Positions 22,509-61,811 of a stretch of DNA of 64,000 nucleotides are shown here, piece after piece; position 1 is the first letter of the stretch; each line of letters starts with the position of its first letter. Origin of the DNA: Lentimicrobiaceae bacterium (GTDB lineage Bacteria > Bacteroidota > Bacteroidia > Bacteroidales > F082). Position numbers and translations under genes: made by a program. Location: NCBI GenBank assembly GCA_018661505.1, contig JABJIE010000015.1:8424-72423 (forward strand). The letters are read 5' to 3'. A model generated the notes under the pieces. It saw only the letters and a list, made by a program, of their open reading frames with translations, was not told the origin of the DNA and ran no database searches.

Positions 22509-24794
22509 CTATCTAATAATCATTTTTTTATAAGTAGTTTTTCCGTTAATGGTTATCGAATAAAAGTATAACCCACTAGGTATATTAGTTCTATTCCAAT
22601 TAAATGAATGTTCACCAGCAGGTAACCTTGTATTTACTAATGTTGCAACTTTTTTACCAATCGTATTCCAAATATTTAGCTTAACAAAATTTGTTTCGGG
22701 AATAATTAAATCAATATTTGTATAATCGTCAAATGGATTGGGGTAATTTTGTTTTAATTCGAAAGCGATATTATTTGAGATAACATCATTTAACCCTGTA
22801 ATTAGATCTGTATTTTCAGCACTAAATGTTGGTAGCATCAGGATGAAATCTCCAGTTCCATTTACAAACCTTCCAAAAGTTGTATCTGGATATTGTTGTG
22901 TAAAGGTGATCTCATCAATTACACTCATATCATTGTCTGAAAGAATAATAACCTCTCCCGAGGCAGACAATTTGAAATTTGCATGTAATCCACTTTGATC
23001 ATCGTCCTTATCACACCAAACAATCAAATATCCTCCAGCTGTTATTGTAGTATCAGGAAAAACCCACTGATCAGGTTCAGAGCTATCATCTGACAGGTAA
23101 TAACCATTTAAACTAATGTCAGTATTTCCATTATTGAAAAATTCTATCCAATCATCAAATTCTCCATCTTGATCTACCACAGTGCTTTCATTATCTGCCA
23201 TAAACTCATTAATTACCATTATGCCACTAACCTCAACGGTATAATATTCATATTCGGCTCTTGCTGGTGAAAAAGAGACAGCATTTGAGTTTTCAGCATA
23301 AATATAATATTGAATATTGGTTGATCCAGTGTTAAGGGATACTCCATAAATACCATCACCTGCCTGTCCATCTTCATGGTTTCCATCATCAAACATTGGA
23401 ATTTTTTCAAATAACCCATATAATCCTGTTCTGTGTGACAGGAATACATCAGTTTCATTTGTTACACTTGCATTAAACCAAACTTCATTATTTGGAGCAG
23501 CTGATTCCGGTGAGTGAGATACACTGGAAATTTCTGGCCCATCATACTGAAACTCCTGAAGGGAGTTAAGATAATCAGTTCTAGCATCCATAAGCTGAAC
23601 AATGCCTATAACTCCCATGGGGCCACCACCCACTTGATTATAAATATTACTTATAAAATTTGCATAGCTGTAAAATTTATTTTGATCTGCCTGGACATCA
23701 TCATCAATAATATCCTGAATTTGCAAAGCTCTGGTTTCATATAGGTTATTGTCAAAATATTCCTCTATGATTGTTTTCATGTGAGCAACATATATTTTTC
23801 TATATGTATCATTAGTTAATATCTTACTTATAATAGGAAATTCACTTTCATAAAGGTTAGCGAGAGGACTAAGCTGCTGTGCTTGAGTAGTGTTGAGGTT
23901 ACCCAATGTTTGATGCATCCTGAACCCTCCAAAGCTTTCGTTAAGGTCCCATAATACTGGTCTGAATCGTCCATTATCGCCCTTGTACAAGTAATAATTT
24001 TGTGGATTATTAATCGGGCCATCCAAATTTACAAGAAGATTTGAAAAAGCTATAAACCACAGATGATTGTCAATGTTCAAAAGCTGATCAACATTATTGT
24101 TGTGATTATTAAGAGTATCTAAAAAATTAATTAACTCTTCCCATCCGTAATCGGATTTCATATCATAAAGATTATAATAGCTAGTTGAGTCTTCACCGTA
24201 GTAATCCCATACACCACCTGTTGGTGGTCCACCACCGGAGGTAATTTCACCTTTTATCCTTGTGTTTTCATCACTTCCAAAATGAGTTCTCATAAAGTGC
24301 TTATCCACATTCTGGTCATTGGTATATAATCCAAGGTGTGTTCCATTTATATATACATTGGCAAAATTTGATAATCCTGCTGCCATATAATTTCTGGCCA
24401 TCTCGTAGGTTAATACCTCTCTTACAAAGGATGGATCTTTAAAGCAGTTGGCAAGCTTCAATGTTCCATAACCTTCAATTAGCTGATCATCGATTATATG
24501 GTCAAGCTTGATGTTAAGTGGGTTTTTTACCTGATTGGGACTATAGGTACTATTTCCTTTATATCTTACACCAACACTGTCAAAAAACTGTCCATTAAGC
24601 ACAACGGTTCCGATAAGTCTTTCTTCTTGGCCAGCAGCTACAAGCTGATCTAGCAAGTAGTCCCAGTTTGATTCTTCAAATGTTATTTCTATTGAGTTAA
24701 TCGTATTGATGTCATAAAAATTCTGACTTTGAACAAATGACGAAAAACCAGCAATTGTTATTAATATGAATAAATATTTTTTCATGATTTTCAT
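22509..24794 (-). CDS. Secreted CotH-family (atypical kinase fold) protein with a lamin-tail domain and a T9SS C-terminal sorting domain
   Basis: 761 aa with a signal peptide. CotH blocks (NIKLDHIIDD..., NYYLYKGDNGRFRPVLWDLNESFGG). LTD (VINEFMADNES...DWIEFFNNGNTDISLNGYYLSDD). CTD (QNYPNPFDDYTNIDL...GLYFYSITINGKTTYKKMIIR). Confidence 0.85.
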   Translation of the reverse strand: MKIMKKYLFILITIAGFSSFVQSQNFYDINTINSIEITFEESNWDYLLDQLVAAGQEERLIGTVVLNGQFFDSVGVRYKGNSTYSPNQVKNPLNIKLDHIIDDQLIEGYGTLKLANCFKDPSFVREVLTYEMARNYMAAGLSNFANVYINGTHLGLYTNDQNVDKHFMRTHFGSDENTRIKGEITSGGGPPTGGVWDYYGEDSTSYYNLYDMKSDYGWEELINFLDTLNNHNNNVDQLLNIDNHLWFIAFSNLLVNLDGPINNPQNYYLYKGDNGRFRPVLWDLNESFGGFRMHQTLGNLNTTQAQQLSPLANLYESEFPIISKILTNDTYRKIYVAHMKTIIEEYFDNNLYETRALQIQDIIDDDVQADQNKFYSYANFISNIYNQVGGGPMGVIGIVQLMDARTDYLNSLQEFQYDGPEISSVSHSPESAAPNNEVWFNASVTNETDVFLSHRTGLYGLFEKIPMFDDGNHEDGQAGDGIYGVSLNTGSTNIQYYIYAENSNAVSFSPARAEYEYYTVEVSGIMVINEFMADNESTVVDQDGEFDDWIEFFNNGNTDISLNGYYLSDDSSEPDQWVFPDTTITAGGYLIVWCDKDDDQSGLHANFKLSASGEVIILSDNDMSVIDEITFTQQYPDTTFGRFVNGTGDFILMLPTFSAENTDLITGLNDVISNNIAFELKQNYPNPFDDYTNIDLIIPETNFVKLNIWNTIGKKVATLVNTRLPAGEHSFNWNRTNIPSGLYFYSITINGKTTYKKMIIR

Positions 24795-24850
24795 TTTTTA
24801 TTATGTAATACATATCACAAAAACATCCAGTCCTGCTAATATATTAAAGA

Positions 24851-26383
24851 TTATTGCTTAATAATATTCCGCCACATATAACCCGAGGAGTTCTTTATTG
24901 CTATTATATATATACCCCTTGGCAAATTATTAATGTTGACTTTGATTTCTTCATGCCCTGAAACATTTAATGTATACATAACTCTACCATTTATATCGGT
25001 TATTTTTATTTCACCATATTCCGAGGAGTTATTATTAATATATAAAATGTTATTTACGGGATTTGGATACACCTGTATATTGCTGTCATTAAAGCCATTC
25101 TCATTTAATCCAAGTGTTGTGTCTGCATCCCTTACCAAACGCACATAGTTAAAAATTCTAACCACATCACCCTGTGGACCGTGACCATATGGATAATTGT
25201 CAGGGTTACCTGTTTTTGGGTCGCTTCGCTGAGATCCCGCACCATGCACATCCAACAATACATAATTTCCTGAATTTGGCGGCATTTGCATCCACCCAAG
25301 TGCTTCTCCAAAACAAACATATGCTGCATTTCTACCTTCATTATTCTGAAACCAACTCACATGTGTTGTTCCACTCCAGTAAAATGGATAGTTCGTATTA
25401 CCTCCCTCATCAATTATTTCGGAACAGTTGAATATGGGGTCAATAGCTGGAGAGTTTGTTGTTGAAGGAGATCGCGTATAGTCAAGAATGCTTTGAAGTT
25501 CCTTTGTATTTGGTAAACGCCAGTTCGAATGGCCGGCAAAGTTCGTATTTTCGGCATAATCTAATGCATCTTCCCATATCATACCTGAACCATTATCATT
25601 CTTAGCCCACATTAATCCTGATGATCTATCTGTAACAGTCCCATTACCATTATCCTGATAATCATTAGATCCATATCCTGTATCACCACGAACGTACATA
25701 ACATAAAATTGTTTATCCTCATTTTGACCAGGTAATGGACCTGTTGGATAACCTTTTATTCTGCCATCTGCAAAATTCACACCAAACATGGTGTGGTCTC
25801 CCATCATAGTTGTTCCGACATAAATAGTTGAAGAGGCCATTTGTGCATCTATAATTCTTTCGCCTGCATTTTGATCGCCATAGGCAAAATCAAAGTAACC
25901 CGTGTCTATAAACGGAATTAAATCATCGGTTGAAGTACCAGTATATCCGCTCGGGTCTACACCACTGAAAATTATTAATGAATACAATTCTTTTATGTTA
26001 GGCAGCCGCCAGTCTGTGTATCCGGCAAGATCAAATGATGTAACAGCTTCAATAGCTTCAAAGTAAGACATTTTATCATCATAATCAATATCACCATCAC
26101 CATCCATATCAGGACTTTTTTGCCACATAAGGCCTGTTACTAGATCCGTAACAGTTCCGTTTTCATTGTCCAAATAACTTGGTACATAGCCTGTATAATT
26201 TGCATCCTGACCGAAGAAAATATCTCCATTAGAAGGTGGCACTATTTGGATAATTGTATCATAGAATTTTTGCTGGTCTGTATCAACAATAGGGTGGTCA
26301 ATTGTTTTTTGTGCAAATGATTCATGCATCTGAAATAGAACAATTATCAGAGCAATTAATATGTAAGATATTCTTTTCTTCAT
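24851..26383 (-). CDS. Secreted DUF1566 (Lcl C-terminal-like) repeat protein with a T9SS C-terminal sorting domain
   Basis: Start placed at the internal Met (MKKRISYILIALIIVLF). Two DUF1566-type units (TGLMWQKS...WRLPNIKELYSL; SGLMWAKN...WRLPNTKELQSIL). CTD (VYPNPVNNILYI...GIYIIAIKNS). Confidence 0.8.
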   Translation of the reverse strand: MKKRISYILIALIIVLFQMHESFAQKTIDHPIVDTDQQKFYDTIIQIVPPSNGDIFFGQDANYTGYVPSYLDNENGTVTDLVTGLMWQKSPDMDGDGDIDYDDKMSYFEAIEAVTSFDLAGYTDWRLPNIKELYSLIIFSGVDPSGYTGTSTDDLIPFIDTGYFDFAYGDQNAGERIIDAQMASSTIYVGTTMMGDHTMFGVNFADGRIKGYPTGPLPGQNEDKQFYVMYVRGDTGYGSNDYQDNGNGTVTDRSSGLMWAKNDNGSGMIWEDALDYAENTNFAGHSNWRLPNTKELQSILDYTRSPSTTNSPAIDPIFNCSEIIDEGGNTNYPFYWSGTTHVSWFQNNEGRNAAYVCFGEALGWMQMPPNSGNYVLLDVHGAGSQRSDPKTGNPDNYPYGHGPQGDVVRIFNYVRLVRDADTTLGLNENGFNDSNIQVYPNPVNNILYINNNSSEYGEIKITDINGRVMYTLNVSGHEEIKVNINNLPRGIYIIAIKNSSGYMWRNIIKQ

Positions 26384-26689
26384 ATTTAGTTTTTCTTTAA
26401 AGTTAAATACTTTTTGATTTGATGTCAAATAACATAATAATTATAACGCAAATAAAATAAAATTAACGTTTAGGTATATAACATCAAAGAAAAGGACAGA
26501 ACTATCAATATATTTAAAATAGTAAACCATAATTACACCGTCAATAGTGATAATTAACCCCAATTACATTAAGAGTTAAAATATGATTGGTCAACCCTTT
26601 TAATGATAATAAAATTGTTAGTAATACATTAATGTATGGTACTTTGAAAATGTTTGATTTATTTTGTCTAAACAAAACATTATACTGCC

Positions 26690-45462: not shown

Positions 45463-47409
45463 ATGAAATACTATTTCACATTAGCCATATTAGTATTAAC
45501 TATATCGTTTTCCTTTGCACAATTAAACAATAAGGTTGTTAATCATGAGATTATGGTTCAACTAAGTAATTCAGATCAATTGAGTAAACTTCTGGAAAAC
45601 CATAATCTTGAAGTAAAGGATATCCTATCTGAACGATTTAAGATTTATCTTTTGCAAATAAAAGATAAAGGTAAATCCAATTCTGAGGTTATTTCTAGCT
45701 TAAGATCCATTCATTACATCCATAATGTTCAAAGTAATCATATTGTAGAATTAAGAAATACTCAACAGAAAATTCCCAACGATTCATTATTTGCGGATCA
45801 ATGGGCTTTGCTTAATACGGGGCAGGGCAGTGGTTATGCAGGGGCTGATATAAGCGCTACTCTTGCATGGGATATTACCACAGGAGGAGTTACTGCGCAT
45901 GGAGACACAATTGTTGTTGCCGTTGTTGATGATGGATGTGATATTGAACAGAATGACCTTAATCTTTGGAGGAATTATAATGAAATTCCCAACAATGGCA
46001 TTGATGATGATGATAATGGTTATGTTGATGATTATAATGGTTGGAATGTATATAATAACAGTGGTGATATACCTTCTACTAATCATGGAACTCATGTTAG
46101 TGGAATTATTGGAGCCATTGGCAATAATGATAGGGGAATTTCGGGTTCAAATTGGGATGTAAAAATTCTACCCATTGCAGGTGAATCTAGTACAGAATCA
46201 ATTGTTGTGAAAGCACTTTCCTATGTTTATGAGGTAAGGGAGAAGTATGATCAAACAAATGGTATTGAGGGAGCATTTATTGTGGCTCAAAATAATTCGT
46301 TTGGTGTTGATAAAGGGCAACCAAATCAATATCCAATATGGGAAGCAATGTATGATTCATTGGGGTCAATTGGAATACTTAGTATTGGCGCTACTGCTAA
46401 CAGATCATGGGATATTGATAGCTTAGGTGACATACCCACAGCCTTTGAAACACCATTTATGATATCAGTTACAAATACCACAAATAGGGATTTTAAAAAT
46501 AATAGTGCAGCTTGGGGTAAAACAACCATTGACTTGGGTGCTCCTGGGACAATAATTTGGTCACTTGGACTAAATAATACCTATAGAATGAGCTCTGGGA
46601 CATCAATGGCTACCCCTTTTGTTTCTGGTGCTATAGCGCTTCTTTTGTCAGCAGCTGATTCGGCATTCATTAACAACTATAAAAATAATCCAGCACAGGT
46701 AGCCCTTATGCTAAAGGAGTTTATTTTAAATGGTGTTGACATATTACCAGATTTGGATAGTATAACAGTATCTGGAGGCAGATTAAATTTATTTAAATCA
46801 TTGAATCTTATGCTTGGCAATGCAGCAATTGATGTTAATCCACAATTAATCTCAGAAGAACTTCCTCTTGACTACACATTAACCAAGTCTATTTTCATAA
46901 CCAATTTAGGATCCGATACAATCAATTATGAGATTAGTATCGATAACAATCCGGGGTGGATTTACCTTTCGGATGATGATGGTCAATTAATGGGCAACGA
47001 AACAGATACAATTATGGTTGAACTTTCAACCATGAATATAGATTCTACTGGTGTATATTCATGTATAATAAGCATTTCTGGTCAAAACATCGATACTAGT
47101 TACACCTCGGTTATTATGAATGCCTTTGATGATTCGGGTATACCGGGTGGTAACACTAATAAAGTTAATGTATATCCAAATCCGTTTGGTGATGTTGTGA
47201 GATTTGATTGCAAAATAAGAGGTCAAGGCGAGTATTTGATCAATATTTATGACATTTTAGGAAATGAGGTATATAAACACCAGGAAATTAATCGAAACTC
47301 AAGCATTACACATATTTGGCATTGTGATGCGGTTAAAAGTGGCATATATTATTATGAAATATCATTTAATGATGTAAACATATATTCCGGGAAATTATTT
47401 AAAAATTGA
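45463..47409 (+). CDS. Secreted S8 (subtilisin-family) serine peptidase with a T9SS C-terminal sorting domain
   Basis: 648 aa. Catalytic triad blocks VAVVDDG, HGTHVSGIIGA, SGTSMATPFVSGA. Asp/Asn-rich Ca-binding-like insert DDDDNGYVDDYNG. CTD VYPNPFGDVVRF...GIYYYEISF. Confidence 0.9.
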   Translation: MKYYFTLAILVLTISFSFAQLNNKVVNHEIMVQLSNSDQLSKLLENHNLEVKDILSERFKIYLLQIKDKGKSNSEVISSLRSIHYIHNVQSNHIVELRNTQQKIPNDSLFADQWALLNTGQGSGYAGADISATLAWDITTGGVTAHGDTIVVAVVDDGCDIEQNDLNLWRNYNEIPNNGIDDDDNGYVDDYNGWNVYNNSGDIPSTNHGTHVSGIIGAIGNNDRGISGSNWDVKILPIAGESSTESIVVKALSYVYEVREKYDQTNGIEGAFIVAQNNSFGVDKGQPNQYPIWEAMYDSLGSIGILSIGATANRSWDIDSLGDIPTAFETPFMISVTNTTNRDFKNNSAAWGKTTIDLGAPGTIIWSLGLNNTYRMSSGTSMATPFVSGAIALLLSAADSAFINNYKNNPAQVALMLKEFILNGVDILPDLDSITVSGGRLNLFKSLNLMLGNAAIDVNPQLISEELPLDYTLTKSIFITNLGSDTINYEISIDNNPGWIYLSDDDGQLMGNETDTIMVELSTMNIDSTGVYSCIISISGQNIDTSYTSVIMNAFDDSGIPGGNTNKVNVYPNPFGDVVRFDCKIRGQGEYLINIYDILGNEVYKHQEINRNSSITHIWHCDAVKSGIYYYEISFNDVNIYSGKLFKN

Positions 47410-47589: not shown

Positions 47590-47621
47590 AAGAGATCAAC
47601 AATTTGTTGATCTCTTTTTTT
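47590..47621 (+). terminator. Rho-independent terminator after tRNA-Leu, abutting the stop of the convergent photolyase gene
   Basis: AAGAGATCAAC / GTTGATCTCTT stem (47590-47616) followed by TTTTT. Confidence 0.65.
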
Positions 47622-48898
47622 CATCTAAGAGCAGTCTTATAAGCTTCCATTGCCCTATTTCGTGCATACTTATGTTCGATAATTGGTTTAATATAATTGT
47701 CCGAATCAAAGTTTGGTATCCATTTATTAATGTATTGATTCTGATTATCAAATTTCTTTTGTTGTTCAATTGGATTAAATATCCGAAAATATGGCGCAGC
47801 ATCGCACCCTGTACCTGCTGCCCATTGCCAGTTACCATTATTTGAGGACAATTCATAATCCAATAATTTTTTAGCAAAATAAGCTTCTCCCCATCTCCAG
47901 TCAATTAATAGATGCTTGCATAAAAATCCTGCAGTAACCATTCTAACCCTATTATGCATGTAACCTGTTTGATTTAATTCTTTCATACCAGCATCAACAA
48001 TTGGATAGCCTGTGGTGCCATTGCACCAGTTTTCAAAATCACTTTTACTATTTAACCAATTAATGCTATCATATTTTGATCTAAAATTACCAGAGATAAC
48101 TTTGGGGAAATTGAATAATATCTGCATGAAAAATTCACGCCAAATAAGTTCACTTGTAAACGCATAATTTTTATTAAAAACCTTTTGCAGAACCAAACGA
48201 ATACTAACGGTTCCAAATCTTAAATGAGGACTTAAATGACTCGTGGAATGTAAATATGGGTAATTTCGTTCCGTAGAGTAATTATCTAAGTCTTCAATAT
48301 TAAATGGTTTGACCTTTATGGATGACCTAATGAAACCGAGTTCTTCTAAAGTGGGTATTCTATGATTCGAAATAATGTAGTTTAGATTTTGTTCAGATTC
48401 TTTTTCTATTGGCAAAATCTCTTTAAAGGAGGATAACCATTTGTTTTTGTAAGGTGTATAAACAGTATATGGATGTCCATCATTTTTAGAGATTTCATTT
48501 TCTTCAAAGATTACTTGATCTTTATAAGTTATGAAATTAATTTTTTTTCTTCTAAGGGACTGGCCAATTTCATAGTCTCTCTCTAGAGCATAAGGCTCAT
48601 AATCTTTATTAGCATAAACATCGGAGATATTATACTTGTCTACAAGCTTTTCTAAAACTGACTTTGGATTTCCCTTTAATATAAGTAGTGATGAATTATA
48701 ATTGTGAAGTTGCTTATCTATTCCCAGGAGGTTATCATGTATAAAAGATATTCTAGGATCATCAATGTCTAGTTCTTTTGTGATATTATCATCAAAAATA
48801 AATACAGTTAAAACTGGATTACCTCTTTGAATTGCTTTAAGGAGAGCAGTATTATCATCTAATCTTAAATCTCGGCGAAACCAGAACAGAGAGTTCAT
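47621..48898 (-). CDS. phr: Cryptochrome/photolyase-family flavoprotein (CPD photolyase or Cry-DASH type)
   Basis: 425 aa. 'LFWFRRDLRLDDN', 'TGYPIVDAGMKELNQTGYMHNRVRM', 'WGEAYFAKKLLDYELSSNNGNWQWAAGTGCDAAPYFRIFNP'. Confidence 0.9.
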   Translation of the reverse strand: MNSLFWFRRDLRLDDNTALLKAIQRGNPVLTVFIFDDNITKELDIDDPRISFIHDNLLGIDKQLHNYNSSLLILKGNPKSVLEKLVDKYNISDVYANKDYEPYALERDYEIGQSLRRKKINFITYKDQVIFEENEISKNDGHPYTVYTPYKNKWLSSFKEILPIEKESEQNLNYIISNHRIPTLEELGFIRSSIKVKPFNIEDLDNYSTERNYPYLHSTSHLSPHLRFGTVSIRLVLQKVFNKNYAFTSELIWREFFMQILFNFPKVISGNFRSKYDSINWLNSKSDFENWCNGTTGYPIVDAGMKELNQTGYMHNRVRMVTAGFLCKHLLIDWRWGEAYFAKKLLDYELSSNNGNWQWAAGTGCDAAPYFRIFNPIEQQKKFDNQNQYINKWIPNFDSDNYIKPIIEHKYARNRAMEAYKTALR

Positions 48899-50034: not shown

Positions 50035-51087
50035 TTAATTTAAAAAATTCACTTTACGTGTTGTAATCATGTTTCCTGTTGCTATCCTAAGGAAATATAT
50101 TCCACTAGATAGAGTAGAGATATCAATTGAGTTTGTTTGTGTAGATTTCAATATGTATCCTGGAGTGGTAGTTTGAACCAATGTTCCTGTGATGTCATAT
50201 AGGTCTATGTTCACAAATGAATCTTCCAATAGAGTGTAATTTATATTTACTACTGATGTAGCTGGATTTGGAAAGACCGAAATAGAATTCTTGTCTAAAA
50301 CTGATTCCAGAACTGAAGTTACCAATGGTAACTCTACCAATGTTCCTCCCTCTGGTAATGCAACCCATAAACCAAAAGATGGGCCATTTTCATTGTTAGA
50401 AGGATTCAAGAACCCTGAAGCTACAATAGTTATGGCATAATTATCTAAGCCAAGTGCAGCTAATGGCGCCTCGTATTCTGCCACAGTTGTGCTACCTGTT
50501 TCATCTCTTACGGCTAAGCGATAGTTATCAGTTGGAAGCTCTAAATATCCGGCATAATCTCCGTACATTAAATCGTCTACTATTGTCCCGGCGCCTACAC
50601 CAACTTCTACTATATCAACAGTTGGCGCATCAGTTGAACCATGGAACACTAAAACATCTGTATTGGATGGATTGGTAGCTTCCTCTCTCGCCATGGAATA
50701 AACGTAAATATCGAATGGTTTCACTGGATCATAACCGCTAGGACTTACTATACCATTTGCAATAAGAATATATTTTTCATCTGCTTGAAGAGTATAATTC
50801 TGAGACCAAATTGGGTTGTCTGGACTTGAACTACCTGGACCTGCAATTGAAATTGTGAATTCTTGATCAGCTGGTGCATCGATAAATGGAGTAGCAGATC
50901 TAAATTCAAAGTTGTCAATTAATAGCACATCATCAAGCCAAACATCTACAAACTCTGCAGCATTATCTGCGGAATTATGGATAACTTGGACACGTGCGGT
51001 TGGGTTTTGGGCTATTGCTGAGATATGTGAAAAGCCTAGTATCAATGCAATAAATGTTGCGAAAATAACTTGTGATTTTGTTTTCAT
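50035..51087 (-). CDS. Secreted DUF4397-domain protein with a T9SS C-terminal sorting domain
   Basis: 350 aa with a signal peptide. Two DUF4397-like units ('ARVQVIHNSADNAAEFVDVWLDD...', 'DVLVFHGSTDAPTVDIV...YGDYAGYLELPTDNYRLAV'). CTD 'VFPNPATSVVNINY...GIYFLRIATGN'. Confidence 0.75.
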   Translation of the reverse strand: MKTKSQVIFATFIALILGFSHISAIAQNPTARVQVIHNSADNAAEFVDVWLDDVLLIDNFEFRSATPFIDAPADQEFTISIAGPGSSSPDNPIWSQNYTLQADEKYILIANGIVSPSGYDPVKPFDIYVYSMAREEATNPSNTDVLVFHGSTDAPTVDIVEVGVGAGTIVDDLMYGDYAGYLELPTDNYRLAVRDETGSTTVAEYEAPLAALGLDNYAITIVASGFLNPSNNENGPSFGLWVALPEGGTLVELPLVTSVLESVLDKNSISVFPNPATSVVNINYTLLEDSFVNIDLYDITGTLVQTTTPGYILKSTQTNSIDISTLSSGIYFLRIATGNMITTRKVNFLN

Positions 51088-52750: not shown

Positions 52751-52781
52751 TGTCTATATTTACAATCTAAATAGGTAGACA
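52751..52781. promoter_or_regulatory. Imperfect palindrome overlapping the start codon of the MerR/B12 regulator; candidate autoregulatory operator
   Basis: TGTCTA-TATTTA (52751-52762) ... TAAATA-GG-TAGACA (52768-52781). The arms are exact reverse complements apart from the GG bulge. Confidence 0.3.
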
Positions 52782-53665
52782 TGGAATCATATTCAGTGGC
52801 ACAAGTTGAATCAATTACAGGAATTAGTGGTCATAAATTAAGAATTTGGGAAAGGCGTTACAAGTTTCTCAAACCAAAGAGAACACCTACGAACATAAGG
52901 TTTTACACAGCAGACGATCTAAAGCTCCTTATTAATGTGGGAATTTTAACAAGACATGGGAATCGAATATCCAAGATAGGCAGCCTATCCAGTAAGGAAA
53001 TATCTGAAAAGGTAATAGAGCTTCTAACTGATACAGATACAGACTTTGAAGATGATATATCAAGTTTAATGTTAAGCGCAATAAACTTTGACGAAAATCT
53101 TTTTAATAATATTTTTCAACGTCAACTGGTTAGAAGTGGATTTTTAGCAACCATAACAGATCTAATTTATCCTTTTCTAAATCGTGTAGGTGTAATGTGG
53201 ACAGCTAGCAGGATAATTCCATCCCAGGAACATTTTATTACGAACCTAGTTAGACAAAAAATAATAAGCTCTATCGATAGCTTGCAACAACCAGCGCATG
53301 ATGCACCTGAAATACTTTTGTTCCTGTTCGAAGGTGAGGATCATGAACTGCCACTGTTAATTGCCTCATTCATTATTAAAGATTTAGGATGGAAAGTATA
53401 CTATCTTGGTCAAAATATTCCCTTAAATGATATCGTTACAATAATTAAAAAAAGAAACATACCAACTGTTATGTCTATGATTACAGCACCGCAAATTGAT
53501 AAGGTATCCAATCTAATCTACGACCTGATATCAAATACCGACGTTCACCTTATATTATCTGGAAGCAAGAAAAACATCCCAAATTTCGAAAATCTAGAAA
53601 CTGTTTCCGTTGTAAATAATCCTAAGGAACTTATATCACAACTACATAATCTCAGTAATAGGTAA
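52781..53665 (+). CDS. MerR-family regulator with a C-terminal cobalamin-binding module (CarH/LitR-type light-responsive repressor candidate)
   Basis: 294 aa. N-terminal MerR HTH (YSVAQVESITGISGHKLRIWERRY). Wx9EH motif at W140...E150-H151 (VMWTASRIIPSQEHF). Rossmann-like B12 domain with candidate axial His188 in 'LFLFEGEDHELPLLIASFIIKDLGWKVYYLGQNIP'. Confidence 0.8.
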   Translation: MESYSVAQVESITGISGHKLRIWERRYKFLKPKRTPTNIRFYTADDLKLLINVGILTRHGNRISKIGSLSSKEISEKVIELLTDTDTDFEDDISSLMLSAINFDENLFNNIFQRQLVRSGFLATITDLIYPFLNRVGVMWTASRIIPSQEHFITNLVRQKIISSIDSLQQPAHDAPEILLFLFEGEDHELPLLIASFIIKDLGWKVYYLGQNIPLNDIVTIIKKRNIPTVMSMITAPQIDKVSNLIYDLISNTDVHLILSGSKKNIPNFENLETVSVVNNPKELISQLHNLSNR

Positions 53666-58151: not shown

Positions 58152-58309
58152 TTTTAATTTATTTTTCAGATACTAACAAAGATAGAATTTTATGTATTCA
58201 TTAAGGATTACGAAAATCATGGACTGCCAAAAAAGTACAATTCAATATAAATCATACTTGATGTAAAGTATTCACTTCAGTTGTTTCATAGGTGAAAGAT
58301 GATAACAGA

Positions 58310-59695
58310 CTATTTGTGAACATCTTTTATGAATTCATCTACTTCGGGAACTCCACCCTGATAAACAAGATACCCATTGTATGGTTCACGTAAAGTTATT
58401 TCATCATTTACAGGAGTTAGCATAAGTTTCTTTACTTCCTCAGGGTCATCAGTTTGACCAAGAACCCAACTTAACTTTACCCATGCAACTTCTGGTAACA
58501 TATTACCTGCTGGTATAATTCCCTTTGCCATCATATCCCGTCCTGTATCATAAACAAACATATGAACATAACCCCAGATAGTTTGGAGAGTCATAAACAT
58601 ATGTATACCTTTTTCATGGGCTCTTTCAATTGCTGGATAAAGCTCTTTGTTAACATGCCCAAGTCCCGTACCGACAAAAATAATACCCTTATAACCTGAA
58701 TCTACAAGTGCATCAATAGTATCTGGAGCCATGCCTGGATAATAATATAACATGGTTACTTTATCACTAAAATAAGGTAGAATATTTACGTTCTTATCAT
58801 TACGTCGTTTGTTGTAGTTCTTTTTTATGGGGATAATCTCTTCTCTGTTTATTCTTGCAAGTGGTGTATCTCCGATGGTTCTAAATGTTGACCTATAAGA
58901 AGAGTGCATTTTTCTTACTCGTGTTCCCTTATGCAATAATCCGTATTCATCAGATGTTGGGCCAAACATACAGACTTGCACTTCTGCCATATCAGATTGC
59001 CCAGCTGCTTTCATGGCATGCATAAGATTAAGTGCGGCGTCAGAACTAGGTCTATCTGAAGATCTTTGCGAACCAACAAGAATAATTGGTATTGGCAGGT
59101 TCTGGCACATAAAAGTAAGTGCTGCACCTGTGTGATGTAATGTATCTGTACCATGCCCTATTACAATTCCATCAACTCCTTTCTTTATTTCTTTTCCAAT
59201 TGCCTTGGCAAGTGCTAAATACTGTTTTGGCCCCATATTTTCACTAAAAACAGCAAATATTTTCTCGGTTTCTAGATTGCAAATATCAGCAAGCTCTGGT
59301 ACCGCACCATAAAGCTCTCCTGGAGAGAATGCGGGAATTACAGCTCCCGTTCTATAATCAAGTCTTGACGCTATTGTGCCACCAGTTCCAAATAACTTTA
59401 CTTTTGGAAGACCCTTTGTGTAGGGAAAATCTTTTTCAGGTATTTTATAATTAGCCTTTTTATAACCGGTTTCTTTCATGCTTAAAATCGTACGGGTATC
59501 TATGCCTATATTATATCCTGTTATTATCTTTATAACAATGTGCTTATCATCGTCATTCTCGGATCTAGGTAGCACTGTACCCTCAAAACTTCCGCGGGTT
59601 GTCTCAGCAGATACAGCTCCCCAAACTCTAACTTTGTATTTCTTAAGTAGCTCTAAAGCCTCACCTTTGTACCCTTGAAAAATATCGTTGTCCAT
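58310..59695 (-). CDS. gatD: Glu-tRNA(Gln) amidotransferase subunit D (archaeal-type GatD; asparaginase-fold glutaminase)
   Basis: 461 aa. GatD-specific N-terminal domain (..FEGTVLPRSENDDDKHIVIKIITGYNIGID). 'GTGGTIASRLDYRTGAV', 'HGTDTLHHTGAAL', 'GSQRSSDRPSSDAALNL', 'VRKMHSSYRSTF', 'LPEVAWVKLSWVLGQTDDPEEV'. It lies 2 nt downstream of gatE. Confidence 0.9.
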   Translation of the reverse strand: MDNDIFQGYKGEALELLKKYKVRVWGAVSAETTRGSFEGTVLPRSENDDDKHIVIKIITGYNIGIDTRTILSMKETGYKKANYKIPEKDFPYTKGLPKVKLFGTGGTIASRLDYRTGAVIPAFSPGELYGAVPELADICNLETEKIFAVFSENMGPKQYLALAKAIGKEIKKGVDGIVIGHGTDTLHHTGAALTFMCQNLPIPIILVGSQRSSDRPSSDAALNLMHAMKAAGQSDMAEVQVCMFGPTSDEYGLLHKGTRVRKMHSSYRSTFRTIGDTPLARINREEIIPIKKNYNKRRNDKNVNILPYFSDKVTMLYYYPGMAPDTIDALVDSGYKGIIFVGTGLGHVNKELYPAIERAHEKGIHMFMTLQTIWGYVHMFVYDTGRDMMAKGIIPAGNMLPEVAWVKLSWVLGQTDDPEEVKKLMLTPVNDEITLREPYNGYLVYQGGVPEVDEFIKDVHK

Positions 59696-59697
59696 AA

Positions 59698-61635
59698 TTA
59701 AACCTCTTTACTTAAGTCAGTTAATTCAATATTCCCGATTGCTATATTTCTTAGCTTTCCCATAACCCAATTCTTTCTTTTGATATTGGAAATTATTTCT
59801 TTACCCTCGGAAAACTTTTCATTTAGCAAGGGTAGTTTTGATAGTATTTCTTTTTTTGAGTATTTTTTGAAATTCATACTGGTGAGGATGGATTCAAAAT
59901 CCATCTGAGGATGCATAATAAGTTCTGGCAGCATCTTTTCTGCCAACTCAAAAGTTATTCCTTTACTTTTTAAGTATTTGAAAAGTTTAAATATTCTTTC
60001 AAAATTAAACTGTTCAGGACCCTGGTAATGTCCAACTGCAAACTTAACCTCGTGGCCAAAAAACGCGCATACATATTTGGGATTTACACCAATTTTATCA
60101 ACGATTTTAGTTATTATGGGAAAAAGATTTTTGGAAAATATGTACGTATAAACTTCCTCATTAACTCCCCATTCCTTTAATATCTTATAGTTATCAATTA
60201 CATCTGTAGGCAGGTTTTTATTTAGATTATTCAAATAGTTGTCGTCAAGAGGTATGGGTGCTGAATCAGTATCTGGATACATTCGATCTGCTCCTGGTAG
60301 GACACGCTCAAATATTGTTGTTCCATCTTCAAATGACTTTCTTGTTTCATTTGGAACTCCAGTAAGTGCCAATTTACATCTTTCTTCAACTGTTTCTATA
60401 GCAGTTGAAATATCATCTTCATTTGCCCATATGATTATTTGAGAATCTTCCTTCGACGCCTTAAGTCTTGTTTGGACCAATTTCCAGTGTTTTTCAGAGA
60501 GTATTGACTCAAATTCTTCTGAATGGGCCATGTTAGGTTTTTCAATGCATGCTATTACCTTTAACCTGGTAGATATTTCATCTGCAAACATTTGTCCCGG
60601 TTGAGTAAAATAGGAAAGAGCACCCTTAAATCCAGGAAGGTTTATGGCAATAATGGTTTCTTTTTCCTCCAATTCTGGTAAAATAGATAATATGTCTTTT
60701 ACACCCACCGAACTTACTTTCCATCCTTTAATGTTGTTTAAGTTTGCGGAAAGCATATCTCTTATTTGTAACAAAGCCCATTGACGAAATACCTCATTGT
60801 GGGTTAATTCGGGGATCCACTTTGTGTGCGCTACACCTTTTATTTCAACACGACTGCCACCTCTACAACTTACATTAACATCTTGTCTTCCTGCTCCCAT
60901 TCCTGTTCTTACATTTCCAGTACTCCTGTTTAAAAACCTGATATAGTCACAACCATCTTTTACTTCATCAGGATTTTTAAAATCAGGATAGGTAACAGTT
61001 TCAATCAATGGCATCCCAAGTCTGTCGGTTTTATAAACACGAACATGTCCCACATCGCTAATCTCTCGGCATGAATCTTCTTCAATACTTAATTGTATTA
61101 ACCGTATTTTTTTAGATGGGAGTTCGAGTTCTCCCTCTACACCCAATATCGCTGTACGCTGAAAACCAGCAGGGATACTTCCGTCGAGGTATTGCTTGCG
61201 TGTAATGTGAACCTCTCCAACAATATTTAGTTTCGATAATAAAGATATTTCCAATGCCTTCTCCAATGCATCCACGTTAATCGGAAAAGGAGGAGTATCA
61301 TCGATTTCATAGGTACATGCATTTTCATTATTTATTCGATATACAATTTCCTTTCTTGTTTTAAATTCCATTAATGCTGTTCCATCATATTCTCCAAGTT
61401 CACTTAAAGTTGGTCGCATATGCCTGATTAGCTCAGCATTGTAATCATCGTGTTCATGAAATATTCCTGCTGGACAATGACAAAAGAGCTTTTCACTTGT
61501 AAGTAACTGCTGGTGTACTTCCAATCCAGACATAAAACCCAAAGCATCATATGTCTCTTGAGTTGCATCTATTCGAGGAACATAACCAACCTTTTTCTTG
61601 CTTATTTCATAATTGGACTTTGAATTAAAGCTCAT
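59698..61635 (-). CDS. gatE: Glu-tRNA(Gln) amidotransferase subunit E (archaeal-type GatE)
   Basis: 645 aa. 'GLEVHQQLLTSEKLFCHCP', 'RPTLSELGEYD', 'DDTPPFPIN', 'FQRTAILG', 'IEEDSCRE', 'DRLGMPLIETVT', 'GAGRQDVNVSCRGGSRVEIKGV'. It has an inserted domain and a YqeY/GatB-like tail. It is about 160 aa longer than GatB and is paired with GatD rather than GatA. Confidence 0.85.
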   Translation of the reverse strand: MSFNSKSNYEISKKKVGYVPRIDATQETYDALGFMSGLEVHQQLLTSEKLFCHCPAGIFHEHDDYNAELIRHMRPTLSELGEYDGTALMEFKTRKEIVYRINNENACTYEIDDTPPFPINVDALEKALEISLLSKLNIVGEVHITRKQYLDGSIPAGFQRTAILGVEGELELPSKKIRLIQLSIEEDSCREISDVGHVRVYKTDRLGMPLIETVTYPDFKNPDEVKDGCDYIRFLNRSTGNVRTGMGAGRQDVNVSCRGGSRVEIKGVAHTKWIPELTHNEVFRQWALLQIRDMLSANLNNIKGWKVSSVGVKDILSILPELEEKETIIAINLPGFKGALSYFTQPGQMFADEISTRLKVIACIEKPNMAHSEEFESILSEKHWKLVQTRLKASKEDSQIIIWANEDDISTAIETVEERCKLALTGVPNETRKSFEDGTTIFERVLPGADRMYPDTDSAPIPLDDNYLNNLNKNLPTDVIDNYKILKEWGVNEEVYTYIFSKNLFPIITKIVDKIGVNPKYVCAFFGHEVKFAVGHYQGPEQFNFERIFKLFKYLKSKGITFELAEKMLPELIMHPQMDFESILTSMNFKKYSKKEILSKLPLLNEKFSEGKEIISNIKRKNWVMGKLRNIAIGNIELTDLSKEV

Positions 61636-61811
61636 TATATCAGTTGTTATTATTGTTTCATGTAAAAGTTCAAATTTAAGAAAAATGCCTTGGGAGATAT
61701 CCTAATTTTTGAAAACTTTTATATCCTAATTTCAATTTAGATTTGACCTTTTTAATCAAATATCAATGGATATTTAAATCCAATTTCAATAAAGTTTCTA
61801 AATATTACGTT

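Follow-up and report, generated by a model that had tools for sequence, protein, structure and literature searches.

A 64,000-nucleotide stretch of a Lentimicrobiaceae bacterium genome (contig JABJIE010000015.1, positions 8,424 to 72,423; hereafter the window) carries two adjoining genes, gatE and gatD, that encode the subunits of GatDE, a tRNA-dependent amidotransferase known from archaea. We find that GatDE is not peculiar to one lineage and that the window pair belongs to a very large bacterial clade represented in hundreds of uncultured species. On the retained catalytic residues and tRNA-handling modules, which are under purifying selection, the predicted GatD/GatE chemistry is not in doubt. 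The substrate of the bacterial enzyme is most likely Glu-tRNAGln. Taken as a whole, the reading that we consider probable is that bacterial GatDE, produced from a bicistronic operon and forming an old bacteria-specific clade with a probable Asgard-like donor, amidates Glu-tRNAGln beside glutaminyl-tRNA synthetase (GlnRS).

Identity and layout of the gene pair

An earlier note on this DNA described two minus-strand genes 2 nucleotides apart that encode proteins of 645 and 461 residues; the open reading frame (ORF) coordinates agree (Table 1), and all of the peptide blocks that it quoted (GTGGTIASRLDYRTGAV, HGTDTLHHTGAAL, GSQRSSDRPSSDAALNL, LPEVAWVKLSWVLGQTDDPEEV, and GLEVHQQL...KLFCHCP) occur in the translations. 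Its naming of the two proteins as GatD and GatE is borne out by hidden Markov models (HMMs), solved structures, catalytic residues, predicted fold, synteny, and composition alike. The gatD_arch and gatE_arch models that it had proposed as a check were both passed, with GatD scoring 497.2 bits against TIGR02153 (cutoff, 324) and GatE scoring 385.5 bits against TIGR00134 (cutoff, 319.55), both of which are equivalog models. GatD also exceeded a second equivalog model, NF003217 (496.4 bits; cutoff, 310), while GatE fell 8 bits below the cutoff of its second model, NF003107 (448.2 bits; cutoff, 456).

The best solved-structure relatives of the window GatD are the archaeal GatD chains 1zq1_A (385 bits) and 2d6f_A (384 bits), with free asparaginases reaching at most 139 bits. 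The GatD-specific N-terminal domain claimed previously is present, matching PF18195 above its cutoff. GatD catalysis is known to employ a Thr nucleophile and a Thr-Lys-Asp triad (PMC2330236), and the window residues Thr107, Thr183, Asp184, and Lys262 are invariant among 141 sequences, including both GatD chains in the PDB. The GatD core additionally passes the asnASE_I subfamily model (375 bits; cutoff, 260.5). A free type I asparaginase lying beside a GatB was considered and is ruled out by the presence of GatD_N, the margins of the HMM scores, and the matches to solved structures.

The larger protein had been described as GatE rather than GatB, and as partnered with GatD rather than GatA; indeed, the best GatB model, TIGR00133, yielded only 116.9 bits (cutoff, 314.8), and gatD is the adjoining gene. 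Among solved structures, the closest relatives are GatE chains (2d6f_C, 291 bits; 1zq1_C, 275 bits), with GatB chains at no more than 64 bits. An AlphaFold2 model of GatE (predicted local distance difference test [pLDDT], 80.8; predicted template modeling score, 0.79) retrieved 2d6f_D and 1zq1_C as its best Foldseek matches (E of ∼1e-40, template modeling score of 0.76 on the target), compared with ∼1e-22 for GatB.

The inserted domain and YqeY-like tail reported for GatE are likewise recovered, from the gap in the GatB_N match, weak GAD and GatB_Yqey matches, and the predicted fold. The GatB_N match covers 433 GatE residues against 277 profile positions, with ∼105 extra residues inside it; GatE therefore contains a large insertion. 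A subthreshold Pfam GAD match (residues 322 to 402; E of 0.012 at relaxed thresholds) falls within this region, and relatives of the window GatE have precomputed PF02938 matches. The model also shows weak secondary Foldseek matches to AspRS structures (e.g., 1c0a_A), which reflect the insertion domain. The tail can be aligned both to GatB tails and to Pyrococcus abyssi GatE, in the latter case as far as residue 598, and has a subthreshold GatB_Yqey match at residues 543 to 621; residues 465 to 644 are modeled as confident, exclusively helical structure (pLDDT, 85 to 95). In known amidotransferases, the helical and YqeY-like tail is the module that binds the D-loop.

In the Methanothermobacter thermautotrophicus enzyme, GatE residues His15, Glu157, and Glu184 are Mg2+ ligands that are essential by mutagenesis (PMC2330236). 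The corresponding window residues, His41, Glu185, and Glu212, do not vary among 127 sequences from bacteria and archaea. A short loop of the GatE type (VRTG.GAGRQD) sits where GatB possesses a 3-10 turn. Beyond these shared features, 21 GatE positions are diagnostic, in that the residue common to at least 90% of bacterial GatEs occurs in at most 10% of archaeal GatEs (e.g., I154 versus N, T108 versus L, F117 versus H, and D455 versus E, bacterial versus archaeal). These positions lie mostly in the catalytic cradle, mainly at window positions 60994 to 61422 (residues 72 to 214). We note that the end of the Bacteroidales GatE tail (positions 59701 to 59790; residues ∼616 to 645) reads WVMG.LRN.AIGN, whereas archaeal and other bacterial tails read G..M...RGK/RGR..G..V; the Bacteroidales form lacks two basic residues of what is presumed to be a D-loop-binding motif.

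Only 2 nucleotides separate the gatE stop from the gatD start, implying a bicistronic gatE-gatD operon. The same arrangement prevails elsewhere, with gatE and gatD being neighbors in this order in 148 of the 154 loci compared. Among the best 80 species-representative loci, gatD follows gatE in 78, and both exceptions are contig ends. In five loci (L041, L068, L071, L113, and L138), one additional gene of ∼1 to 2 kb separates gatE from gatD, and in one locus (L162), no gatD was found within 9.7 kb downstream of gatE. Upstream of gatE lies TAAATTTG, a match to TAnnTTTG, which we take to be the −7 promoter consensus of Bacteroidota; on this motif, it is a candidate promoter element. TAnnTTTG occurs 20 to 90 nucleotides upstream of 15 of the 36 window ORFs, against a chance expectation of ∼0.06 per ORF. 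Besides the copy at 61671 to 61678, examples lie at 58177 to 58184 and upstream of 13 other ORFs; the genes so preceded include gatE, the OstA-like gene, and that for the permease. The same scan of window ORF upstreams retrieved no TAnnTTTG box before gatD. A sigma-70 promoter/terminator scan returned 16 sites, with 16.1 expected.

TABLE 1 Features of the gatE-gatD pair in the window and of linked loci (locus coordinates carry the locus handle)
Feature	Position	Strand	Description or basis
gatE	59698-61635	minus	645 aa, ATG start; kinase/amidase (tRNA-binding) subunit; ORF call
gatD	58310-59695	minus	461 aa, ATG start; glutaminase/asparaginase-fold ammonia-donor subunit; ORF call
2-nt spacer, gatE stop to gatD start	59696-59697	minus	ORF coordinates
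TAAATTTG, candidate Bacteroidota-type −7 box (TAnnTTTG)	61671-61678	minus	∼36 nt upstream of gatE ATG
GatD-specific N-terminal domain, residues 31-69	59489-59605	minus	Pfam PF18195 GatD_N, 41.7 bits (cutoff, 25.7)
GatD asparaginase-fold catalytic core, residues 98-425	58421-59404	minus	Pfam Asparaginase, 186.5 bits (PF00710); Asparaginase_C, 115.8 bits (PF17763)
GatE cradle (catalytic) domain, part one, residues ∼36-299	60739-61530	minus	Pfam GatB_N 36-468; carries Mg2+ ligands
GatE insertion domain, residues ∼300-404	60424-60738	minus	AspRS/GAD-like, not in GatB; approximate boundaries
GatE cradle domain, part two, residues ∼405-468	60232-60423	minus	Pfam GatB_N to 468; 2d6f_C alignment
GatE helical and YqeY-like tail, residues ∼469-645	59701-60231	minus	Alignment to P. 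abyssi GatE and GatB tails
glnS→gatE→gatD	L030:62-4891; L087:8001-13190	one strand	One Bacteroidota sublineage
glnA-gatE-gatD	L093:8660-13309; L161:604-5509	co-directional	Some non-Bacteroidales bacteria

Bacterial residence, distribution, and origin

The immediate neighbors of the pair in the window are an SLC12/amino-acid-permease-like gene, an OstA/LptA-like gene, and an MlaD-like gene. The window also encodes RuvB, RNase E/G, QueG, an AcrB/TolC efflux system, LptD, Pta, and RlmN, together with molybdenum-cofactor genes and several proteins with type IX secretion system (T9SS) sorting domains. The flanks and the remainder of the window are thus bacterial, as the earlier note had held on the permease, envelope, and T9SS genes. 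Its remark that the pair is as AT-rich as its surroundings also stands: the G+C contents at third codon positions (GC3) are 0.276 for gatE and 0.264 for gatD, compared with 0.260 ± 0.025 for 31 other window ORFs, and the codon-usage distances of both genes fall inside the window range. GenBank already contains this exact GatE protein, under the name "MAG: GatE [Lentimicrobiaceae bacterium]" (MAG, metagenome-assembled genome), and it is listed in 390 index blocks. Of the long contigs among these, the 24 examined all have the order MlaD, OstA / gatE, gatD, permease, aldolase. A closed 4.45-Mb contig whose GatE is 80% identical displays the same synteny as the window. With host-like composition and the same flanks in 24 long contigs, chimerism, contamination, and recent transfer of gatE-gatD are excluded, in line with the view taken previously.

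In a species scan using one genome per GTDB species, 448 stretches encode a relative, and the best 80 were examined in detail. All of these 80, at 60 to 80% identity, are bacterial MAGs, mostly from Bacteroidales sensu lato (Lentimicrobiaceae, Marinilabiliales, Prolixibacteraceae, and Ancylomarina). Four lie on chromosome-scale contigs of 4.1 to 4.8 Mb, three of which are recorded as chromosomes. Identity to the window proteins in the best 80 loci is 71 to 92% for GatD and 60 to 80% for GatE, and the OstA/MlaD and permease/aldolase flanks persist well beyond the nearest relatives. The survey of related Bacteroidota that had been suggested therefore finds both the gatE→gatD order and the flanks shared.

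The clade extends beyond Bacteroidales. When 1.84 billion cluster representatives were searched exhaustively, 586 proteins were retrieved at E < 1e-30, and metagenomes from the Joint Genome Institute (JGI) contain at least 595 further stretches with a relative. The named members of the window clade and its relatives are all bacterial (CSSED10-310, Calditrichia, KSB1, Krumholzibacteria, Latescibacteria, Aminicenantes, Desulfaltia, and "Clostridiales"). On contigs from Aminicenantes, Calditrichia, and Latescibacteria, and on one 5.98-Mb contig, gatE→gatD lies among bacterial genes, which encode DnaA, RecO, FtsX, RodZ, L28, SecA, and a T9SS tail. Clustering of neighboring ORFs revealed no third gene conserved across phyla beside gatE-gatD; the neighbors are lineage specific only (CoA pyrophosphatase-like, LolE-like, and aminotransferase genes, plus glutamine synthetase-family genes). 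When the window was compared with five relatives, synonymous sites were saturated (pS, the proportion of synonymous differences, 0.72 to 0.89), while the nonsynonymous counterpart, pN, was 0.05 to 0.09 for gatD and 0.14 to 0.22 for gatE. Both genes are under strong purifying selection.

GatD is the better conserved subunit across bacterial phyla, with 63 to 77% identity to the window protein, compared with 41 to 44% for GatE (loci L081 to L169). Separately, records titled Thiohalospira sp., Eubacteriales, Aminicenantes, Ignavibacteria, and Chlorobiota encode Bacteroidales-type GatE at 61 to 66% identity (loci L047, L076, L065, L072, L074, L078, and L021). One of these, L047, has a Bacteroidales synteny in common with L046. 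Contigs with such titles and a Bacteroidales-type GatE are probably misbinned or mislabeled.

A tree of 127 full-length GatE sequences resolves two groups that separate bacteria from archaea in 100/100 bootstraps, the labels being organism names for 8 of 30 representatives queried and set by clade for the remaining members. The window group includes sequences scoring 400 to 620 bits. In the other group, the members with names belong to archaea (Heimdall-, Thor-, and Odinarchaeota, Hodarchaeales, Ignisphaera, and Aenigmarchaeota). Closest to the bacterial clade are the Asgard GatEs (Heimdall-, Hod-, Thor-, and Odinarchaeota), and a split that unites the bacterial clade with Asgard-like sequences and sets both apart from the remaining 76 archaeal GatEs, which is independent of rooting, was recovered in 57/60 bootstraps. 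Rooting employed three GatB fragments and the cradle domain in a neighbor-joining tree of ∼196 columns. In the rooted tree, bacteria are monophyletic in 96/100 bootstraps and placed beside a Heimdallarchaeota sequence; archaeal monophyly appears in just 11/100, and the deep topology is poorly resolved. These sequence relationships favor an old transfer of GatDE from an Asgard-like donor, with the root and donor unsettled in a neighbor-joining tree of 196 columns. Such a transfer would be ecologically plausible, since the bacterial phyla with GatDE and the Asgard archaea both occur in anoxic sediments.

Several further features of the window lie outside the pair. T9SS cargo is encoded at 22509 to 26428, 45463 to 47409, and 50035 to 51087, all with Por_Secre_tail; the kinds represented are a CotH-kinase and lamin-tail-domain protein, an Lcl_C-domain protein, a subtilisin-like protease, and a small protein. 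A Schlafen/AlbA_2-domain protein lies at the window start (397 to 1953). A CarH-like (B12/light) regulator and a photolyase are encoded a few kilobases apart (47621 to 48898 and 52781 to 53665), a hint of regulation by light in this lineage.

Linkage to glnS and glnA and the probable function of bacterial GatDE

Linkage was assessed over flanks of up to 10 kb per locus, and the results below cover that reach. In locus L030, a gene with 55% identity to Escherichia coli GlnRS runs in the same direction as gatE and stops 100 bp upstream of it. The glnS of L087, with the same 100-bp gap and direction, is full length, scoring 745 bits against TIGR00440 (cutoff, 426) and retaining the HIGH and MSK motifs. 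The order glnS-gatE-gatD was found on 15 contigs that derive from several samples, with genes for glutamine synthetase and TyrRS a few kilobases upstream and folB divergent from glnS. With glnS adjoining gatE-gatD, GatDE and GlnRS coexist in at least one Bacteroidota sublineage. The folB/glnS neighborhood also occurs without gatED, in more distant Bacteroidota, an arrangement suggesting that glnS is the ancestral gene there and gatED the newcomer beside it. The proposal of the earlier note that this lineage "makes Gln-tRNAGln the archaeal way" consequently fails for the related sublineage if taken to mean a lack of GlnRS, given an intact glnS upstream; Glu-tRNAGln nevertheless stands as the likeliest substrate.

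In some non-Bacteroidales bacteria, the linked gene is instead a type I glnA, 10 to 28 bp upstream of gatE-gatD in L093 and L161 (463 and 455 bits against TIGR00653; cutoff, 429); L094 and L097 present the same pattern. In 15 Bacteroidales loci, the opposite strand also carries a glutamine synthetase-family gene of ∼500 codons, ∼7.5 kb upstream of the pair. When ∼170 loci were screened with E. coli GlnRS, GluRS, AsnRS, AspRS, and AsnB, only glnS was retrieved, in L030 and L087 to L089. No linkage of gatED to aspS, asnS, asnB, gltX, or gatB was found in ∼165 GatE-bearing loci, and every match of three GatB cradle fragments against the ∼170 loci was gatE itself. No tRNA-Gln genes were found in the window and 80 loci.

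By homology to the solved archaeal enzymes, the gatE-gatD operon, read from a candidate host-type promoter, would yield a heterodimeric GatDE assembled as α2β2. GatD would hydrolyze Gln or Asn with Thr107 as the nucleophile and Thr183-Asp184-Lys262 as the triad, and the ammonia released would pass through an intersubunit tunnel to GatE. GatE, gripping the acceptor end and D-loop of the mischarged tRNA, would use ATP and Mg2+ to phosphorylate the side-chain carboxylate via His41, Glu185, and Glu212 before amidating it. The likeliest reaction is conversion of Glu-tRNAGln to Gln-tRNAGln, because of the glnS and glnA linkages and the retained insertion domain, which in the archaeal enzyme was modeled as clashing with a nondiscriminating AspRS (PMC2330236). 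GatDE would most likely act alongside GlnRS and not replace it. One possible role is the conversion of Glu-tRNAGln produced by an incompletely discriminating GluRS, tied to glutamine supply.

Several observations weigh against this assignment. GlnRS is present in one sublineage, where a Glu-tRNAGln amidotransferase is not obviously needed unless GluRS is nondiscriminating. Archaeal GatDE reads an A1-U72 pair, and bacterial tRNAGln normally carries U1-A72 (PMC2330236). The 21 diagnostic substitutions and the changed RGK tail motif of Bacteroidales may signify a shift in specificity. Finally, the glnS and glnA linkages are each limited to a few lineages, and neither occurs in the window.

A possible but doubtful alternative is that GatDE displaced GatCAB and serves as an Asp-tRNAAsn or dual Asp/Glu amidotransferase that supplies Asn by a tRNA-dependent route in GlnRS-bearing genomes. 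The co-occurrence of GlnRS with GatDE speaks for this explanation, as tRNA-dependent Asn synthesis is the known reason for keeping an amidotransferase beside GlnRS and AsnRS, including in some Bacteroidetes genera (PMC4206432). The bacterial-clade substitutions in the cradle and the altered tail motif are compatible with it, as is the acceptance of either Asn or Gln as amide donor by GatD-type subunits (PMC2330236). However, those GatDE enzymes that have been characterized act specifically on Glu-tRNAGln (PMC2811023), the insertion domain modeled as clashing with a nondiscriminating AspRS is still present, and the pair is linked to glnS and glnA but never to aspS, asnS, or asnB in ∼165 GatE-bearing loci. 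We regard as unlikely the fuller scenario in which an enzyme of Asgard-like source was retuned to bacterial tRNAs through the 21 cradle substitutions and the tail, displaced GatCAB in several sediment phyla, and now acts on Asp-tRNAAsn, or on both substrates, beside GlnRS. If true, Asp-tRNAAsn (or dual) amidation would be without precedent among GatDE specificities.

Recruitment outside translation, with only the GatDE chemistry kept and directed at another carboxylate or at an aminoacyl-tRNA destined for a metabolite or the cell envelope, appears quite improbable. Its appeal is that the function is in principle dispensable where GlnRS is present, that the clade has its own substitutions, and that envelope genes (OstA-like and MlaD-like) adjoin the pair in the window. 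Yet all tRNA-handling modules (cradle, insertion domain, and YqeY-like tail) are retained, the envelope-gene synteny is limited to part of Bacteroidales and does not occur in other phyla, and no third partner gene accompanies the pair across phyla. The remaining explanation, an artifact or remnant (a chimera, archaeal contamination, very recent transfer, or a misannotated GatB with a free asparaginase), is effectively refuted. The genomes are MAGs, and some titles are clearly mislabeled, but identical junctions recur in many independent assemblies, including closed contigs of 4.4 to 4.8 Mb; codon usage is host-like and purifying selection strong; and GatB models fall ∼200 bits short, while the smaller protein carries GatD_N and is matched best by GatD chains among solved structures. 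Amidation of Glu-tRNAGln alongside GlnRS therefore remains our preferred reading of bacterial GatDE.

Significance and comparison with known systems

The literature treats GatDE as archaeal, as the earlier note had stated (PMC2330236, PMC2811023, and PMC9499178), and has described it as an archaeal signature protein exclusive to archaea (PMC2330236, 2008; PMC2811023, 2009; PMC8007984, 2021; PMC9499178, 2022). It has also been inferred to have been present in LUCA, the last universal common ancestor, and to be "now only found in archaea" (PMC9499178). No report of a bacterial GatDE was found in the literature, where coverage of subscription journals was incomplete and absence is no proof. The names GatD and GatE are nonetheless routine in NCBI and JGI annotation of hundreds of bacterial MAGs. 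The annotation is thus known, while the biological fact appears to be undescribed and uncharacterized. The earlier note had allowed that its novelty would lapse if GatDE proved widespread and characterized in this clade; the first half applies, the clade being large and automatically annotated, and the second does not.

Evolutionary scenarios for Gln-tRNAGln formation rest on an archaea-only GatDE; these include GatDE in LUCA followed by bacterial loss, coevolution of GatDE with the unusual archaeal tRNAGln, and this tRNA as a barrier to GlnRS acquisition. The bacterial clade shows that GatDE can function, or at any rate survive, within a bacterial translation apparatus and that GatDE and GlnRS are not mutually exclusive. 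It provides a natural experiment on what sets the choice of amidotransferase, as well as a mesophilic GatDE for enzymology that presumably reads bacterial tRNA. In practical terms, "gatD_arch" and "gatE_arch" matches in bacterial MAGs should not be taken as contamination.

Compared with type I L-asparaginase, the GatD core shares a passing asnASE_I score and the catalytic Thr and Thr-Asp-Lys residues. GatD differs by its extra GatD_N domain, its higher GatD-equivalog scores, and its invariable pairing with gatE. Bacterial GatCAB, the usual bacterial tRNA-dependent amidotransferase, performs the same overall chemistry with GatB as the paralogous kinase subunit, and some bacteria retain it despite having both GlnRS and AsnRS (PMC4206432). 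In contrast to GatCAB, the window pair comes without GatA or GatC, and its glutaminase has the asparaginase fold and not the amidase fold. GatE contains the insertion domain and the GatE-type short loop, lies below the GatB HMM cutoff, and has gatD as its partner.

Archaeal GatDE (M. thermautotrophicus, 2D6F; P. abyssi, 1ZQ1) has the same two subunits, domain architecture, and catalytic residues as the window pair, with identities of 44 to 47% for GatD and ∼30 to 34% for GatE. Unlike the archaeal enzymes, the window pair resides in a bacterial host and belongs to a separate clade (100/100) set apart by 21 diagnostic positions, and the bacterial genes are almost always joined as a gatE→gatD operon. 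While all archaea are without GlnRS according to reviews (PMC9499178), the bacterial enzyme occurs with GlnRS in at least one sublineage, and its presumed tRNAGln would have the bacterial U1-A72 pair, not A1-U72.

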